The notes beneath the pieces were generated by a model, which saw only the letters and a program-made list of their open reading frames with translations, did no database searches and was not told the origin of the DNA. A stretch of 5,957 bases of DNA from a virus: IMG/VR virus record IMGVR_UViG_3300020029_000023, positions 1 to 5,957 of that record; one strand, written 5' to 3'. Every line of letters begins with the position of its first letter. Position 1 is the first letter of the stretch. This document shows positions 475 through 5,957 of this stretch, piece after piece. Made by a program: the position numbers and the translations under genes.

Positions 475-1728
475 ATGCCTATCCCTGTTGCCGCATCTTT
501 TGGTCAAGCCCTTGGTCAGTCTGCTGCTTCTACCGGCTCTAGCGGCTTGATTAATGGTTTCCTAGGCCAGCTTTTTGGTGGCATGAACGCTCGTCGTCAG
601 TGGCGTTTTCAGCAGAAGCAAATGAAGCTTCAACAGCAGTATGCTTTAGAGCAAATGCAAAAACAGTCAGAGCTCTCTTATGCTAATTGGCAGAAACAGT
701 TTGACTACGAAAACGCTTACAATGACCCTTCGAAGGTTTTCGATCGCTATTTGAAGGCCGGTGTAACACCTGCTGCCGTACTCGGCTCTTCCGGCGTTGG
801 TGTAAATGCCACTATGTCAGGCGGCTCCGCGTCTATGCCTTCTGCCTCTGGCCCTTCTGGTGGCGCTCCTGTTAGTCCTGGCGCCATCTCCCCTGGCGAC
901 CCTACTGCTATCGCGCAGAATATGATTGCACAATCTACGGTTGATCGCAATGTTGCTGCTGCTAATCGAGATGATGCAGAAGCTGCTAATCTTCGAGGCA
1001 ATACTCATACGCAAGAGTGGCGAGAGCGAATGGATAAATTTGAGTTGCAGATTGCTGAGCACCATGTTAAGGATGCTCGTGAGCTTGCTAACCTTCGTGA
1101 GGCGCAGGCTCAAATTGTAGCAATTGATGCTTATTTGTCCAATATTACACAAGGTTATAAGATGACTTCTATTATGGCTATGGCTGGCATCTTGGAGGAG
1201 AAATACCAGAATCTTCGCTTAACGAATGATTGGTTCGAACCTGAAGCCGGTGCGGCGCTCGCCGTCGCTTGGAGTTCTGCCCTCGCTAACGTCGCCTCGG
1301 CTAATGAGTCTGACTCTCGTACAAAACTTAACGCCCAAGAGCTCAAGGATTTGCAAAAGTGGTTCGAGCTCAACTGGGAAAAGGAGGTTCCCGTTCAGAT
1401 ACGTAACGAGAAGGGTGAAGTCGTTGAGACGAAGACAATGAAGGTGGCTGAGACCTTGGCCATACTGAAGACTGCTGCCGCTGAAACTGCTCAGCTCGAA
1501 ACAGGTAACGCTCGTTGGGACTTGCGGAATTCTCGCCTTCGCCTCGGACATGATGTTGTTCGCTCCTTCGCTGCTGCTGCTGGCATTGCCGCTTCTTCCT
1601 ACGTCAGTCGTAAGGCTGGAGGTCCCGCTGGCCCAGAAGGTTACGAGGAAATGAGGGAATTCTACGGCCCTTCAGGTGATCATGTCGGCGGTACTTACGT
1701 TCGCCGGAATTATCTTGGGAGAAACTGA
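475..1728 (+). CDS. Minor capsid / DNA pilot protein (VP2, H-like), 417 aa.
   Basis: The N-terminal region ...RRQWRFQQKQMKLQQQYALEQMQKQSELSYANWQKQFDYENAYNDPSKVFDRYLKAGVTPAAVLG matches, from memory, the conserved Q-rich ...YN.P......R...AG.NP... block of gokusho/alpavirus VP2. It is followed by a Gly/Ser/Pro low-complexity linker and long Ala/Glu-rich, helix-like segments. Size and position are typical. Confidence 0.8.
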   Translation: MPIPVAASFGQALGQSAASTGSSGLINGFLGQLFGGMNARRQWRFQQKQMKLQQQYALEQMQKQSELSYANWQKQFDYENAYNDPSKVFDRYLKAGVTPAAVLGSSGVGVNATMSGGSASMPSASGPSGGAPVSPGAISPGDPTAIAQNMIAQSTVDRNVAAANRDDAEAANLRGNTHTQEWRERMDKFELQIAEHHVKDARELANLREAQAQIVAIDAYLSNITQGYKMTSIMAMAGILEEKYQNLRLTNDWFEPEAGAALAVAWSSALANVASANESDSRTKLNAQELKDLQKWFELNWEKEVPVQIRNEKGEVVETKTMKVAETLAILKTAAAETAQLETGNARWDLRNSRLRLGHDVVRSFAAAAGIAASSYVSRKAGGPAGPEGYEEMREFYGPSGDHVGGTYVRRNYLGRN

Positions 1729-2140: not shown

Positions 2141-2464
2141 ATGACACAGATTCATGTTGTTGTCCGGCGAGTTAATCCGGCTCTCAAGGTTGATTTCGCC
2201 CAGATAGGTCGTTTTAAAGACGGCCAGTTTGATCCACTCCCTCTTAGCGCTATTGCGAACACTCCTGTTGCGCGTTTCTTGGAGAATTCGGATATCAGCG
2301 ATTCACCCTACGTCAACCACTCGAAAATAGCAGATATTATTGCTGCCTGTGAAAGCCTTCCTGGTTTTAGCATCGAGTTTTTTGATAATACAATAGTTCT
2401 TATGTTTGATTTTGATCTCAACTACAATGAAAGCGCGACGAAAGAAGAAGGGAAAGGGAACTAA
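2141..2464 (+). CDS. Hypothetical protein, 107 aa, with an acidic C-terminus (ORFan).
   Basis: The ATG is 11 nt after the preceding stop, on the same strand and with the same codon style. It shares an in-frame 17/18-nt segment (2406..2423, encoding DFDLN) with the junction-spanning acidic ORF (18..35, encoding DFDPN). Confidence 0.6.
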   Translation: MTQIHVVVRRVNPALKVDFAQIGRFKDGQFDPLPLSAIANTPVARFLENSDISDSPYVNHSKIADIIAACESLPGFSIEFFDNTIVLMFDFDLNYNESATKEEGKGN

Positions 2465-2507
2465 AGTTGTGACCCGCCCGCTTGGTGGTAGAGTTCTTTA
2501 ACTACTT

Positions 2508-2572
2508 GAACCCCAGGGGACAACCGAAGGTTGTGGCCACCGCGAAGCGGTAAGGTACCCCCCTGCGGGTTC
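2508..2572 (+). other. Compound stem-loop (three-way junction) with two C(GAA)G triloop hairpins. Candidate ssDNA complementary-strand origin, or an RNA structure/terminator.
   Basis: Outer stem: gaaccccagggg (2508..2519) pairs with cccctg(c)gggttc (2560..2572), 12 bp with C2566 bulged.
Hairpin A: caacc (2521..2525) pairs with ggttg (2529..2533), loop gaa.
Hairpin B: accgc (2539..2543) pairs with gcggt (2547..2551), loop gaa. It extends through cc/gg (2537-38 with 2554-55) and gg/cc (2535-36 with 2558-59), leaving two 2-nt bulges.
GCGAAGC lies at 2542..2548. The junction strands are only 0-1 nt long. Confidence 0.65.
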
Positions 2573-2601
2573 TTCCTTTTAACCCGTATATACCTTTTTT
2601 T
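2566..2601 (+). terminator. Alternative hairpin plus T7 tract. It excludes the outer stem of the 2508..2572 fold and is a weak intrinsic-terminator candidate.
   Basis: cgggtt (2566..2571) pairs with aacccg (2581..2586) around the 9-nt loop cttcctttt. A T7 run at 2595..2601 begins 8 nt after the stem, which is not canonical spacing. The hairpin reuses the 3' strand of the outer stem, so the two folds compete. Confidence 0.25.
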
Positions 2602-2802
2602 ATGGATTATTTCGATTTCCGCCCTCGGTTTTCGCCTACCGTTGATAGTATTCCTTATCGTTATTCTATTGGCGCATATCGCGGCAAAAGGCGCGTTGTT
2701 ATTGCCTGGTTTTCTGACGAGTGTTTCGCACATGACTACCTTGTCCGCTGTCGCCGCGATAATCCTGATATTAAATTTGATTGTCTTCGAAGCCTACTGT
2801 AA
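2602..2802 (+). CDS. Hypothetical small protein, 66 aa, apparently translationally coupled to the Rep gene.
   Basis: ATG at 2602. The stop TAA at 2800..2802 overlaps the Rep ATG at 2802..2804, forming TAATG. Third codon positions are T-rich as in the recognised genes. The competing 100-aa ORF 2531..2833 looks like the hydrophobic +1-frame shadow of this ORF. Confidence 0.55.
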   Translation: MDYFDFRPRFSPTVDSIPYRYSIGAYRGKRRVVIAWFSDECFAHDYLVRCRRDNPDIKFDCLRSLL

Positions 2803-3872
2803 TGCCTTGTTCGTCGCCCATATGGATACGTAACCGTCGTTATTTTGACAAGAAGAACCCCTGTCGTAACGGCTCCGATGTCGCTAAGTCCGCTCTGGCT
2901 CTCCGCCCCTGGGATATCGCTCGTCAGTGGCTTATGGTCCCGTGTGGAAAGTGCGAAGACTGTCTTCGTCGCCAGCGCAACGATTGGTTCGTCCGGCTCG
3001 AGCGTGAGCTTGCCCGTTGTAAGGCTAATGGCTCGCAGGCTATTTTTGTTACGATAACGATTGCTCCGAAGCATTATAACGAAGCCTTGCTTGATCCGTC
3101 CTGGTTTATTCGGAAATTTAACGAACGCCTACGCCACAAGCTTGGCCATTCGTTTAAACACGCTTTTTTCCAGGAGTTTGGCACCCATCCAGAAACAGGA
3201 AACGAGCCTCGATTGCATTTTCACGGCTTTTTGTTTGGCACAAACGTTCTCTATAACACGATTCGTTCTGCGGTTCGAGACCTTGGTTTCGTTTGGCTAA
3301 CAAAAGCAACTCACAAGCGTGCTCGTTACTGCGTTAAATATGTTACTAAACAAATTCAGTTTAACCCCGAAGAGATTTCGGATAAATATGTTACCGTAGA
3401 TGGAAAACCTACAGCTTTGTCTCGCCTCCTCCAACATCGGCGTTATACGCGCAAGTTTATATCTGCTGGCGTCGGCGATTTTCTTGGTTACATGCCTCGC
3501 CCTTCTTCTCGCGTTTCGTCGTGGTCTTATTTTGATCCTGAGAAACGTATCAATTATAATTACTCGATTCCTCGATACTATCTTAAATATCTTAAATCGG
3601 AAGACGACGTTGTTCGCTCGATTGCCGCCGCTGATGCTTATTCACGTTTTAGCAAGTCTCCTCTGGTTAAGCGTATTGTTTCTTTGTGTGTTGAGCGGTT
3701 CAATCTCAATTCCTCCGTATCCCGTAGAGCGTCTTATACGTGGGAACAGCGACAAATAATGCGTTTTTCCGCCTCTTCCCGGAAAATGCCTGATCTTGAT
3801 CCTCCAACCTGGTTGAATTTGGATATTCTTCAGTTTTGGAGAGATCACTATAAACTTCAACTAATTATTTAA
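2802..3872 (+). CDS. Rolling-circle replication initiation protein (VP4, phiX A-like HUH endonuclease), 356 aa from the ATG at 2802. The ORF track extends it to a TTG at 2781.
   Basis: The N-terminus MPCSSPIWIRNRRYF and PCGKCEDCLRRQRNDWF are typical of VP4. Motif 1 is IFVTITI. The HUH motif is RLHFHGFLF, with the first His codon at 3216..3218. The double-tyrosine motif YCVKYVTK (Tyr codons 3327..3329 and 3339..3341) has the same Y-x-x-K-Y-x-x-K spacing as the catalytic tyrosines of phiX174 protein A. Confidence 0.9.
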   Translation: MPCSSPIWIRNRRYFDKKNPCRNGSDVAKSALALRPWDIARQWLMVPCGKCEDCLRRQRNDWFVRLERELARCKANGSQAIFVTITIAPKHYNEALLDPSWFIRKFNERLRHKLGHSFKHAFFQEFGTHPETGNEPRLHFHGFLFGTNVLYNTIRSAVRDLGFVWLTKATHKRARYCVKYVTKQIQFNPEEISDKYVTVDGKPTALSRLLQHRRYTRKFISAGVGDFLGYMPRPSSRVSSWSYFDPEKRINYNYSIPRYYLKYLKSEDDVVRSIAAADAYSRFSKSPLVKRIVSLCVERFNLNSSVSRRASYTWEQRQIMRFSASSRKMPDLDPPTWLNLDILQFWRDHYKLQLII

Positions 3873-3875
3873 TTT

Positions 3876-5675
3876 ATGGGAAAACAACCTTTTATTTCGC
3901 ACTCCGTCAACGGCTACTCTCGCTACGATGTCCCTGAGAGTAAAGCTTTTACGTGTACACCGGGTATTTTGTACCCAGTGAGAATCGATTTTATTAATGC
4001 TCGAGATCGTGTGTCTATCGAGCAAGGTATCGATGTTCGCAGCAATCCTCTCGCTGTCCCAACATTCAACCCCTATACTGTTCGACTTCATCGTTTTTGG
4101 GTACCGCTCCAGCTGTACCACCCTGAGATGAGGACGAATAGCAGTAAGTTCGATATGAACAATTTGAGCCTTAATTGGATTGCTTCCTGTCAGGCTCAAG
4201 CTGGTGGTCTGAATACTGATTTTTTCGGTGCAGCTTATACTAATTCGTTGATGTCTTGGTTGCGTATCGCTAATAAGTACACTACTGGTATACCCAGCGT
4301 CCCTTCTTCCGTGGCTCTTCCTGCTGATTCTTCTATAGATCGTTGGAGTAACGCGGATTCGTATCTAGCTTATTGGGATATCGTCCGCAACTACTATAGC
4401 TATTCGCAGTGGGGACTTTACTCTTTCGCTTGGCCTATGGCTAATAAACTTGTTTATTCTGGTTCTAGTTATTCTCTCAATTCCAAAAATTCTGGAGACT
4501 CTCGCTTTTTTACGCAGTGTTTTGGTAATCTCGAGTTCCTTGATTCTTACTTTGAGAGTCAGTTTTATCCGTCATCCATACCTTCTTCGAATAATACTTT
4601 TAATCGTGGTAATTTGTTCACGCAGATAATTCGCTCTGATCTGGATAATGATGCTTTTTCTACTGATGGTTTTCCTGTTTCTTCGACCTTCCCGTCTACC
4701 TCGCTTTGCGGTTCAACCGGTATTCTTTCCCAGACTTTAACTACCACTTCTTCTACGGCCAATTCTTCTATTGCCTACTTCGTTACTGCGCATCCTATGG
4801 CTGTATGTCCTTCGAATCCTGATCGTTTTAGTCGCCTTATTCCCACTGGCACTAATTCTGCTGTATCTATGACGGGCGTGTCTACTATTCCTCAGTTGGC
4901 TATTGCTTCTCGTCTCCAGGAGTACAAGGACTTGCTTGGCGCTGGCGGTAGTCGTTATAGTGATTGGTTGGAAACGTTTTTTGCTTCCAAAATTGAGCAT
5001 GTTGATCGTCCAAAACTCCTTTTCAGTGCCTCGCAGACTGTTAATGTGCAGATTATTATGAATCAAGCTGGGGATAATAATTTTTCTGGTAATCAGCCTC
5101 TTGGACAACAAGGTGGTTCTATTGCTTTCAACGATCGTTTAGGTCGTCGCCAGTCTTATTACTTTCGCGAGCCTGGTTATATGATTGATATGTTGAGTAT
5201 TCGCCCTGTTTATTACTGGTCTTTTATTAAGCCAGACTATCTCAGCTATACGGGTCCTGATTACTTTAACCCCATTTATAACGATATTGGATATCAAGAC
5301 GTTCCTGCCTTTCGTCTTGCTTTTAACGGTAATCCTGGGACTTCATTTGCGACCGAACCTTGTTTTAACGAGTTTCGTTCTTCTTACGATGAGGTACTAG
5401 GTCAGCTCCAGGCTTATAGTAGGCCGGAGGCTGAAGGTGGGTCTGGAATTCCCCTCTACTCTTATTGGATTCAGCAGCGCACTGTTTATACTTATAGTGG
5501 AACCGGTACTCTTCCCGAGGCTAGTTATTATCCCCTTCTTTTCGTTGATTTGGCTCAAGTTAATTCTCCTTTTAAGTCGAACGTCGAGGATAATTTTTTT
5601 GTGAATATGTCTTATGCTGTCCAGAAGAAGAACCTCGTTAATAAAACTTTTGCAACTCGTTTGTCTAATCGTTAA
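3876..5675 (+). CDS. Major capsid protein (VP1, F-like jelly-roll), 599 aa.
   Basis: This is the largest ORF. The blocks TPGILYPV, NPYTVRLHRFWVPLQLY, AYWDIVRNYY, RLQEYKDLLGAGGSRYSDWLETFFA and DRPKLLF match the conserved pattern I know from gokusho/alpavirus VP1. A long Ser/Thr-rich insertion sits between the AYWDIVRNYY and PSNPDRFSR blocks, where VP1 surface loops vary. Confidence 0.92.
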   Translation: MGKQPFISHSVNGYSRYDVPESKAFTCTPGILYPVRIDFINARDRVSIEQGIDVRSNPLAVPTFNPYTVRLHRFWVPLQLYHPEMRTNSSKFDMNNLSLNWIASCQAQAGGLNTDFFGAAYTNSLMSWLRIANKYTTGIPSVPSSVALPADSSIDRWSNADSYLAYWDIVRNYYSYSQWGLYSFAWPMANKLVYSGSSYSLNSKNSGDSRFFTQCFGNLEFLDSYFESQFYPSSIPSSNNTFNRGNLFTQIIRSDLDNDAFSTDGFPVSSTFPSTSLCGSTGILSQTLTTTSSTANSSIAYFVTAHPMAVCPSNPDRFSRLIPTGTNSAVSMTGVSTIPQLAIASRLQEYKDLLGAGGSRYSDWLETFFASKIEHVDRPKLLFSASQTVNVQIIMNQAGDNNFSGNQPLGQQGGSIAFNDRLGRRQSYYFREPGYMIDMLSIRPVYYWSFIKPDYLSYTGPDYFNPIYNDIGYQDVPAFRLAFNGNPGTSFATEPCFNEFRSSYDEVLGQLQAYSRPEAEGGSGIPLYSYWIQQRTVYTYSGTGTLPEASYYPLLFVDLAQVNSPFKSNVEDNFFVNMSYAVQKKNLVNKTFATRLSNR

Positions 5676-5687
5676 TATGTTGATTTT

Positions 5688-5957
5688 ATGGCACTTGATT
5701 GGTTACTTGAAGATGCTCCCGCTTATGTTTCTCGCGGTCAGCGTATACTTTCGGTTCTTGATGGTTCTGGTTCCGTCGACGTTCTTCCTGGTCGCCCGGA
5801 TGTAGTAGTAGAACCTTCTGACTTCGATAAGGGTGAAAGATTTAACCCCGATATTGATTTTGATCCCAACTCTTTCTCTCGTATGGATAAGTTTGACGGT
5901 CTCGAGGTTGGTCAGGAACTTATTGATTCACAGCTTGATAGGTCAAAACCCTCGTCA
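5688..5957 (+). CDS. Acidic 98-aa protein that wraps the circular junction; possible internal scaffolding protein (VP3-like). The window cuts off its 3' end. The full ORF is 5688..5836 joined to 1..148.
   Basis: ATG at 5688, 12 nt after the VP1 stop, with an in-frame TAA at 5673..5675 upstream. Hand translation gives MALDWLLEDAPAYVSRGQRILSVLDGSGSVDVLPGRPDVVVEPSDFDKGERFNPDIDFDPNSFSRMDKFDGLEVGQELIDSQLDRSKPSSNPTSSEEK*. There are 21 acidic and 10 basic residues. The position directly after the capsid gene and the small acidic character fit a scaffolding role. The functional call is inference only. The six-frame ORF track missed this ORF because it runs off the window end. Confidence 0.6.
   Translation, partial: MALDWLLEDAPAYVSRGQRILSVLDGSGSVDVLPGRPDVVVEPSDFDKGERFNPDIDFDPNSFSRMDKFDGLEVGQELIDSQLDRSKPSS
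5837..5957. repeat. Terminal direct repeat, copy 2. Assembly overlap of a circular genome, identical to 1..121.
   Basis: Same comparison as copy 1. The non-redundant genome is 1..5836. Confidence 0.97.

Follow-up and report, generated by a model that had tools for sequence, protein, structure and literature searches.

The minus origin of M13 and the single-strand origins (sso) of rolling-circle plasmids (ssoA, ssoT, ssoU, ssoW) are strand-specific, structured, non-coding and host-dependent. In phiX174, a weak intrinsic terminator, T_J, lies in the J-F gap directly after gene J. According to a 2026 review, mini-hairpins of the type GCGAAAGC/GCGTTAGC are found where primase starts on the complementary-strand origins of G4, St-1 and alpha3, CCGAAGG is found in ssiA of the plasmid RSF1010, two consecutive mini-hairpins bind single-stranded-DNA-binding protein (SSB) poorly, and GNA triloops, present also in the hairpin promoters of N4, are exceptionally stable as DNA and much less so as RNA (PMC13037366). 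Covarying hairpins upstream of Rep in two clades of microviruses have likewise been predicted as possible negative-strand origins (PMC9865509). The present analysis concerns a three-way junction at positions 2508-2572 of a 5,957-nt stretch of viral DNA (IMG/VR record IMGVR_UViG_3300020029_000023, the whole of which is hereafter called the window), which a preliminary description had proposed as a candidate complementary-strand origin of a single-stranded DNA (ssDNA) phage.

Here, I report that this fold is conserved and covaries among related gut microviruses, that its outer helix is homologous to the plain terminators of relatives, that its apical part is modular, and that hairpins capped by GNA loops are biased to the plus strand. 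The best explanation is that an intrinsic terminator, counterpart of T_J, would close a gene block coding for proteins of 106 and 107 amino acids (aa; p106 and p107) and for a J-like peptide, and that a 45-nt cassette in the apical loop, made up of two C(GAA)G mini-hairpins, would turn this terminator into a three-way junction, the parts of which are the following:

2508-2519, plus strand: 5' arm of the outer helix, the predicted terminator stem (minimum-energy folds; 10 of 12 pairs covary; homologous to the plain stem of relatives)
2520-2534, plus strand: hairpin A, a 6-bp stem ACAACC/GGTTGT with a C:G-closed GAA triloop, A2520-T2534 being the sixth pair
2535-2538, plus strand: junction GGCC between hairpins A and B, nearly invariant in alignments
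2539-2551, plus strand: hairpin B, ACCGC-GAA-GCGGT, nearly invariant, with GCGAAGC at 2542-2548
2552-2559, plus strand: junction AAGGTACC from hairpin B to the outer 3' arm, mostly conserved, its C-run varying in length
2560-2572, plus strand: 3' arm of the outer helix, with C2566 bulged (minimum-energy folds and covariation)
2573-2580, plus strand: T-rich tail TTCCTTTT, or TTCTTCCTTTT when the TTC of the stem base is counted
2579-2601, plus strand: conserved motif TTAACCCGTATATAC, then a T-run into the ATG, at 2602, of a 66-aa open reading frame (ORF), as seen in the alignment

The anatomy given in the preliminary description can be read directly from the sequence, and all of its coordinates are correct, including those of aacccg at 2581-2586: the 12-bp outer stem with one bulged C (G2508-C2572 to G2519-C2560, bulge C2566), the two 5-bp hairpins with GAA triloops (A, caacc-gaa-ggttg, 2521-2533; B, accgc-gaa-gcggt, 2539-2551) and the exact heptamer GCGAAGC inside hairpin B (2542-2548). 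Nine of the 12 outer pairs are G:C, and the stem starts 6 nt past the stop codon of the J-like gene. Hairpin A has the core CC-GAA-GG and hairpin B is the exact GCGAAGC, so that a GNA triloop and a closing C:G pair are found in both. If only stems of 4 bp or more are counted, the minus strands of 78 related genomes carry about one C(GNA)G hairpin per 26 kb; two of them lying 19 nt apart are therefore not a matter of chance.

The fold fares far better than the shuffled controls with which it was to be compared. The region 2465-2601 reaches a minimum free energy of -24.3 kcal/mol with DNA parameters (z = -3.2; 1 of 200 shuffles as good) and of -45 kcal/mol with RNA parameters (z = -1.7; 10 of 200), while the core 2502-2580 reaches -20.5 kcal/mol as DNA (z = -4.36) and -36.8 kcal/mol as RNA (z = -3.81), none of 200 shuffles equalling either value. 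Whichever region and parameters are combined, four cases in all, the fold of minimum energy is the three-way junction. The alternative pairing CGGGTT/AACCCG, put forward earlier as a possible switch, has little support: it is thermodynamically minor, only 4 bp of it are left in the GGTGGTTC variants, and three subtypes (L010, L089, L100) lack it, the sole near-compensatory change being an A-T pair in L131 (read from the alignment). Likewise, a 3-bp extension of hairpin B (GCC/GGT) does not covary and is unpaired in 2-5 of 25 sequences. The search for an already known element gave no Rfam match in the region at E <= 10, nor in 10 relatives at E <= 1, Rfam being a collection that holds no DNA origins; ARAGORN called no transfer RNA or transfer-messenger RNA. 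Two overlapping ORFs (2461-2733, minus strand, and 2531-2833, plus strand) were ruled out, since their frames are disrupted by indels in the C-run and since the whole region is exchanged in relatives; a XerCD/dif-like site at 2579-2601 was also rejected, inspection by eye having revealed no inverted arms.

Homologues were collected by BLAST against GenBank phages, by pattern scans of IMG/VR and of metagenomes, and from 80 VP1-related loci; the wider pattern scans returned mostly chance matches and added seven further true members. The three-way junction is thus represented by 26 distinct copies from gut-microvirus sequences, and the matches of a covariance model built from them are confined to those genomes, always on the plus strand and in the same place. 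In the model-guided alignment of the 26 homologues, 97.7% of the cells pair, a share that falls to 36-49% in a control with slid 3' partners, and 13 of the 26 pairs are altered on both sides, which none of 500 shuffles attains. Covariation involves 10 of 12 pairs in the outer stem, 2 of 6 in hairpin A and 1 of 8 in hairpin B; a MAFFT alignment (9 of 26 pairs changed on both sides) points in the same direction. The conserved and covarying helices that the preliminary description wished to see in relatives are therefore present, with compensatory changes in all three of them.

The two hairpins differ in how they vary. Hairpin A pairs in 100% of the cells, with a change from AU to GC in 6 sequences, and its loop, among 25 aligned sequences, is GAA in 21, GGA in 1, AAC in 2 and AAA in 1. 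The loop of hairpin B is GAA in every homologue, and its stem has the compensatory variants ACCAC/GTGGT (L154) and ACCCAC/GTGGGT (L089, L100). The outer stem has been replaced entirely in three genomes (L010, with AAGCAGGCGCGG/CCGCGCTTGCTT, L089 and L100), where hairpin B and the junction bases stay nearly the same. The near-invariance of hairpin B and of the unpaired junction bases suggests sequence-specific recognition. In 12 genomes of this type, identity of the element to that of the window is 0.91, as compared with a genome mean of 0.69, and the element is among the three most conserved 60-nt windows of the genome. A 19-mer comprising hairpin B and junction (GGCCACCGCGAAGCGGTAA) is also found in three related proviral contigs of 27-50 kb (L014, at about 4920-4938, L016 and L021), just past a long perfect palindrome; it was rejected as a homologue, its context being unrelated and its occurrence compatible with chance as one independent event.

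The gap that holds the fold is smaller than the 137 nt first reported. It spans 2502-2601, for the 5' third of the supposed gap (2465-2501) belongs to a conserved gene:

2427-2501, plus strand: unannotated 24-aa basic J-like ORF, MKARRKKKGKGTKVVTRPLGGRVL, recognised by peptide conservation and third-position variation

This ORF overlaps the 3' end of the 107-aa ORF in a different frame, ends with a stop codon 6 nt ahead of the fold, and is unannotated in the MG945xxx records examined. The peptide is kept in 72 relatives, in which 69 distinct nucleotide sequences yield 28 distinct peptides, the entropy at codon positions 1, 2 and 3 being 0.17, 0.14 and 0.87, for which values of 0.16, 0.08 and 0.88 were also obtained; the region directly 3' of the 107-aa ORF accordingly varies with strict 3-nt periodicity. 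Small and very basic, with a hydrophobic tail, the peptide is essentially identical across all the types of cassette described below; it has no match in PHROG or Pfam, 24 residues being too short for profile scoring. It is probably the DNA-packaging protein of the clade, resembling J of phiX174 in size and charge only. The "third copy" of a pairing element, gacccg, does lie at 2471-2476, but within the codons V-T-R-P of the J-like ORF, and is therefore explained by protein coding.

A GC-rich hairpin located 0-10 nt past the J-like stop and followed by a T-rich tail is present in 78 of 78 related genomes. In the 65 relatives without a three-way junction, that position is occupied by a textbook intrinsic terminator, namely a hairpin and a T-run (in L047, for instance, CCTGCGGGAG-aaga-TCTCCCGCGGG+CTTTTTTTTT). 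The outer stem of the window, CCCCAGGGG...CCCCTGcGGGTTC, matches the plain terminator CCCCAGGAG...CTCCTGcGGGTTC+TTTTTT of L022 and L054 (whose stems are also given as GAGCCCCAGGAG...CTCCTGcGGGTTC+TTTTTT), bulge included; the bulge position CCTG(c/t)GGG is common to the plain terminators of relatives, and in the covariance-model alignment L054 falls on the outer stem, the branch being treated as a deletion. It follows that the three-way junction is a terminator hairpin with a 45-nt insert in its loop. The T-rich tail, which has a median of 5 T among its first 8 nt and is interrupted by CC, is kept in all subtypes, even in those with a different outer stem (L010, TTTTCCATT; L089 and L100, TCTCCATTT).

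Termination, only an aside in the preliminary description, thus becomes the best-supported function of the outer helix by virtue of its homology to the plain terminators of relatives; with good confidence, the helix is predicted to be an intrinsic terminator like T_J of phiX174. The two are alike in that a hairpin and a T-rich tail come directly after a small basic packaging gene, at the end of the late block, and leakiness is expected. They are unlike in that a 45-nt branch of two hairpins takes the place of a short loop, in that there is no sequence similarity, and in that the next gene is here a small ORF followed by Rep, not a capsid gene; termination in the window is, moreover, a prediction.

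The branch itself belongs to a set of cassettes. Among the 78 genomes, 13 carry the three-way junction, 43 a cassette named X, 6 a cassette named Y and 16 none of these (the "simple" type). Cassette X is another covarying three-way junction, located downstream of the terminator and outside the terminated transcript. The outer stem has several versions, among them GGCCGA/TCGGCC, GCTCGA/TCGAGC and GCCCGA/TCGGGC; of the two arms, GACGC-GNA-GCGTC has the loop GCA in 20 cases, GAA in 15, GGA in 3 and GTA in 3, and the other has a GTTAA loop. The G and the A of the GNA loop being fixed, its middle base free and its closing pair C:G, the pattern matches the definition of a Hirao DNA mini-hairpin. Cassette Y (GAGCCGTTAAGAGCGCGGCGAG...), present in six genomes, shares GCCGTTAAG with X. 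Further modules are seen in the gap of relatives (e.g. L026 1266-1504, L033 and L031, downstream of the J-like stop), such as a covarying hairpin ACCGGnTTTnCCGGT followed by ATAT and a hairpin GCGCTCGAAAG-taccgt-CTTTCGAaGCGC.

Cassette type is loosely tied to the neighbouring genes. Its nearest-neighbour concordance is 0.71 for the 66-aa protein (p66), 0.66 for p107 and 0.49 each for Rep and VP1, with about 0.37 expected at random; in the three-way-junction genomes alone, it is 4 of 11 for p66, 6 of 13 for p107 and 2 of 12 for Rep. Rep is 72-92% identical to that of the window in every cassette class, three-way-junction genomes do not exceed the others in the identity of their p66, p107 and J to those of the window, and cassettes are present or absent among genomes with >90% VP1 identity. 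Mosaicism, modest linkage and the conservation of Rep across classes argue that the locus behaves as a recombination hotspot for structured cassettes, which, judging from the same comparisons, are not the cognate site of Rep. Part of the gap (cassette X, or the end of J with the terminator) is tandemly duplicated in L075, L083, L085, L091 and L029; these duplications may be real events at a recombination hotspot or assembly artefacts.

The independence from Rep bears on the possibility that the fold is a plus-strand (rolling-circle) origin. HUH endonucleases often use hairpins adjoining the nick site, and an HUH Rep might bind the hairpins and nick nearby, e.g. at the conserved CCCG/TATATAC. 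A conserved motif indeed follows the fold in the window, and a similar one (CCGGTATAT, related to TTAACCCGTATATAC) follows a covarying hairpin in relatives with other cassettes. Nevertheless, the TATAT motif is absent from several simple genomes, Rep stays 72-92% identical across types while the cassette differs or is missing (concordance of 2 of 12), and a better-conserved sequence resembling the phiX174 origin, TTCAACTAATTATTTAAT, lies at the Rep/VP1 junction. A plus-strand origin at this locus is thus most improbable, and a nick site of Rep at the fold was ruled out on the ground that the cassette varies while Rep is conserved. The stretch 3822-3901, spanning the 3' end of Rep and the start of VP1, is among the three most conserved (0.93 identity); TTCAACTAATTATTTAAT, which it contains, loosely resembles the core of the phiX174 plus origin, CAACTTGATATTAATAAC, and the stretch is possibly the nick site of Rep or else a promoter and leader of VP1.

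Mosaicism would also be expected of a selfish or neutral recombination cassette that spreads at a hotspot between modules and is harmless inside a terminator loop. Its distribution is unlinked to the phylogeny of VP1 or Rep, presence and absence vary among genomes with >90% VP1 identity, and the region is tandemly duplicated in L075, L085 and L091. Yet the compensatory changes in three helices and an identity that exceeds that of coding sequence, at 0.91 versus 0.69, indicate purifying selection on the fold, the inner hairpins are kept across three outer-stem subtypes and next to proteins only 33-60% identical to those of the window, and no terminal repeats or target duplications flank the cassette; such a cassette is therefore an improbable explanation.

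A further reading takes the element as a binding site, on DNA or RNA, for p66, for the J-like protein or for a host regulator, with possible roles in the control of Rep expression, in the switch from replicative form to ssDNA, or in the nucleation of packaging. It is consistent with the near-invariance of hairpin B and the junctions (GGCC...AAGGTACC) while the outer stem is replaced, with a location between the structural and the replication modules, and with cassette concordance being highest for the adjacent small genes (p66, 0.71; p107, 0.66; random expectation, 0.37). Physical linkage alone would, however, give that concordance, which is only 4 of 11 (p66) and 6 of 13 (p107) in three-way-junction genomes; p66, p107 and J are no more similar to those of the window in these genomes, the J-like peptide is the same in all types, and no candidate binding domain was found in domain and profile searches. 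A protein-binding role of this kind has accordingly only a small chance of being the right one.

More weight must be given to a reading at the level of RNA only, in which the whole junction serves as terminator and as stabiliser of the late-mRNA 3' end, the inner hairpins only pre-organising and strengthening the stem and blocking 3' exonucleases. Although on the doubtful side, it is nearly as likely as a role of the cassette in DNA. Plain terminators are the homologues of the junction both in position and in outer stem, and the T-rich tail is kept in all subtypes; the fold is very stable as RNA (-36.8 kcal/mol, z = -3.8); the terminators of phiX174 are weak and intergenic, one of them after J; a second non-coding element of the window, named IG2 and described below, is also branched with a GC stem and TTTTT, so that branched terminators may be a habit of the clade; and many relatives do without the cassette. 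Against this, triloops are disfavoured in RNA, whereas a GNA loop with a free middle base is the signature of a DNA mini-hairpin, which is far more stable than its equivalents in RNA. The plain terminators of relatives drift freely in sequence, in contrast to hairpin B and the unpaired junction bases, which are near-invariant, and this points to sequence-specific recognition; cassette X, with the same motif, lies downstream of the terminator and outside the terminated transcript; and G.U pairs are avoided in the cassettes but common in plain terminators.

Figures on the last point, and others of the same kind, speak to the DNA level. G.U pairs make up about 11% of pairs in plain terminators and 0.4-1.3% in the three-way junction and cassette X, values obtained by differing counting methods. 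The z-scores with DNA versus RNA parameters are -4.67 versus -4.09 for the three-way junction, -2.95 versus -2.09 for X and -4.65 versus -4.80 for plain terminators. Across the genomes, 116 C(GNA)G hairpins are found on the plus strand, as against 18 on the minus strand. A strand comparison of G.T with A.C mismatches shows no bias, with 5 versus 5 once one conserved G.T position is removed. Four indications, namely the stability of GNA loops as DNA, the location of X outside the transcript, the scarcity of G.U pairs and the DNA z-scores, lean towards selection at the DNA level. The remark, in the preliminary description, on stable mini-hairpins at ssDNA-phage origins is likewise borne out by what is documented for G4, St-1 and alpha3 (PMC13037366), and the fold is, as proposed, on the packaged, mRNA-sense strand, all genes and the element being on the plus strand.

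A mechanism that would combine the two levels runs as follows. Once transcribed, the outer helix, 12 bp long and rich in GC, would together with its U-rich tail attenuate RNA polymerase and form a cap at the 3' end of the mRNA. The same fold would be present in the incoming virion DNA, the mRNA-sense strand being the packaged one; there, the cassette, one of at least three interchangeable at the locus, would be selected as DNA, forming a folded island that is very stable and resists SSB. Synthesis of the complementary strand would begin at this island, where the near-invariant hairpin B and junction would be recognised by an enzyme of the host, be it a primase (as at G4 ori-c), RNA polymerase or PriA. 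That the apical cassette is selected in packaged ssDNA as an SSB-resistant priming landmark is proposed tentatively, as a reading with somewhat less than an even chance; that the interchangeable C(GNA)G-capped cassettes of the clade are host-specific complementary-strand origins, nested in the window inside a terminator and thus acting as RNA and DNA signal, is conceivable but rather unlikely. As a complementary-strand origin, the fold is plausible but unproven: it is non-coding, it lies on the packaged strand and its intrastrand pairing is conserved (97.7% of cells, 13 of 26 pairs with compensatory changes).

Comparison with described origins reveals both likenesses and differences. The ori-c of G4, St-1, alpha3 and phiK is also folded intergenic ssDNA of the packaged strand with several adjacent hairpins, and has Hirao-type mini-hairpins (GCGAAAGC, GCGTTAGC) at the primer start; its three hairpins, however, follow one another in the F-G gap without a terminator around them, its loops are GNNA tetraloops rather than the GNA triloops of the window, there is no sequence homology, and the window element is not universal in its own clade. 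In RSF1010 ssiA/ssiB, a hairpin is capped by CCGAAGG, as is hairpin A, and the mini-hairpin lends stability to a stem that primase reads at its base; ssiA, unlike the three-way junction, is a single hairpin and is read by the plasmid's own primase, RepB', whereas the phage encodes no primase. What the element has in common with the characterised origins is only the mini-hairpin motif, CCGAAGG being shared with ssiA and the GCGNAGC class with G4; no alignable similarity was seen.

Along the same line, the sso cassettes of rolling-circle plasmids are interchangeable between related replicons and dispensable or replaceable, and it is to these that the cassettes of the window can be likened; being unlinked to Rep, the latter resemble both the sso cassettes and the split between the primosome assembly site (PAS) of phiX174 and ori-c of G4. 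The window element differs from sso in having no RS_B or CS-6 motif and no evident promoter-like -35/-10, and its origin activity is putative. The hairpins of reekeekeeviruses and roodoodooviruses are conserved, covary and precede the replication gene of uncultured microviruses, where they are possible negative-strand origins; they belong to other clades, have other sequences and are simple hairpins, for which no GNA motif or terminator homology was reported (PMC9865509). In the light of those predictions (PMC9865509), the earlier statement that no such element was defined outside phiX-like phages no longer holds. An element of this kind (a terminator and a candidate sso) is already known, and candidate hairpin origins have already been proposed in other microviruses.

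Several observations weigh against the interpretation favoured here. The element occurs in 13 of 78 related genomes and is missing from 65 of 78 close relatives; 16 genomes have no cassette at all, most of them without a GNA hairpin anywhere. Being absent from most relatives, the cassette is therefore not the only or essential origin of the clade, and alternative cassettes or IG2 could substitute for it where it is absent. IG2 has the following position:

about 158-262: non-coding element IG2, located after a 98-aa ORF and before the next gene, with very high identity in all 77 relatives, CTTTACTTGACGATATATGCTACGTGCGCGG...CCGCGCATTTTTC

It has a branched fold with an 8-bp GC closing stem and TTTTT, several inner pairs covary, and its indels break any frame; it looks the better candidate for an indispensable cis-acting signal, and could be another branched terminator, a small RNA, or a universal replication signal of the clade. 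As to termination, the T-tract (TTCC[T/A]TTT) is poor, and poorer than in plain terminators; a branched "loop" of 45 nt is atypical of an intrinsic terminator (usually about 3-8 nt), and a consensus terminator scan of the window, with a loop limit of 8 nt, did not call the fold. As to the level of selection, the packaged strand and the mRNA have the same sequence, and virion DNA and mRNA are therefore not directly separable; the contrasts in G.U pairs and z-scores, small and measured by different procedures, are weak evidence for the DNA level. Most of the sequences and contigs come from a few samples, and a recent spread by recombination, rather than selection, could account for the near-invariance of hairpin B and, in part, for the high identity of the element. 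Finally, a search of 185,579 species genomes, by VP1 and by a 27-nt pattern, found neither a prophage copy nor a host.

The window is a complete circular Microviridae genome with a unit of 5,836 nt, read with a terminal redundancy of 121 nt: an exact direct repeat of 121 nt is found at its two ends (1-121 and 5837-5957), indicating that a circular assembly was read past its own start. All genes are in the plus orientation, and the nearest relatives are uncultured microviruses from faeces of pig, deer, civet and human. Besides the J-like ORF, the genes are:

5688 to 148, wrapping the junction, plus strand: 98-aa ORF, missed by linear ORF lists
171-473 as listed, plus strand: 100-aa ORF, from the ORF list
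475-1728, plus strand: pilot protein VP2 (PHROG 8689)
preceding the J-like ORF, plus strand: ORFs of 106 and 107 aa (p106, p107), from the ORF list
2602-2802, plus strand: 66-aa ORF (p66), with its ATG at 2602
2802-3872, plus strand: Rep (PF23343 and PHROG 942)
3876-5675, plus strand: capsid protein VP1 (Phage_F)

The probable start of the 100-aa ORF is an internal ATG at 282 (MSDTKQPLYKSKAFWTLVSSIVAALAAFFLSSCSAQ...), its upstream part being the non-coding IG2; this start gives a lipoprotein-like signal peptide with an LSSC lipobox. A Shine-Dalgarno sequence was found for none of the genes of the window, whose leaders are A/T-rich, and TAnnTTTG motifs are on the plus strand in 7 of 7 cases; these two features hint at a host of the Bacteroidota type. 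A promoter-like TTTACA-17-TATATT at 1752-1780, upstream of the 106-aa ORF and overlapping TATATTTG (TAnnTTTG) at 1775-1782, hints at a promoter for the gene block closed by the fold.

The start of the complementary strand, in microviruses other than phiX174 and G4 as well, is the first step of every infection, and these phages are abundant in animal guts. For the study of this step, a conserved, covarying and transplantable element of 65 nt is now defined, together with a sister cassette and natural controls free of any cassette. Whatever its function, the locus presents a terminator elaborated into a three-way junction, adds a J-like gene to the annotation of the clade, and points to a gap between modules that appears to be a recombination hotspot for structured cassettes and to natural GNA mini-hairpins that would be under selection. 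Should the proposed role in replication be true, this would be the first sso-like cassette system defined outside the phages of the phiX and G4 type, and one and the same sequence would here double as an RNA signal and a DNA signal.

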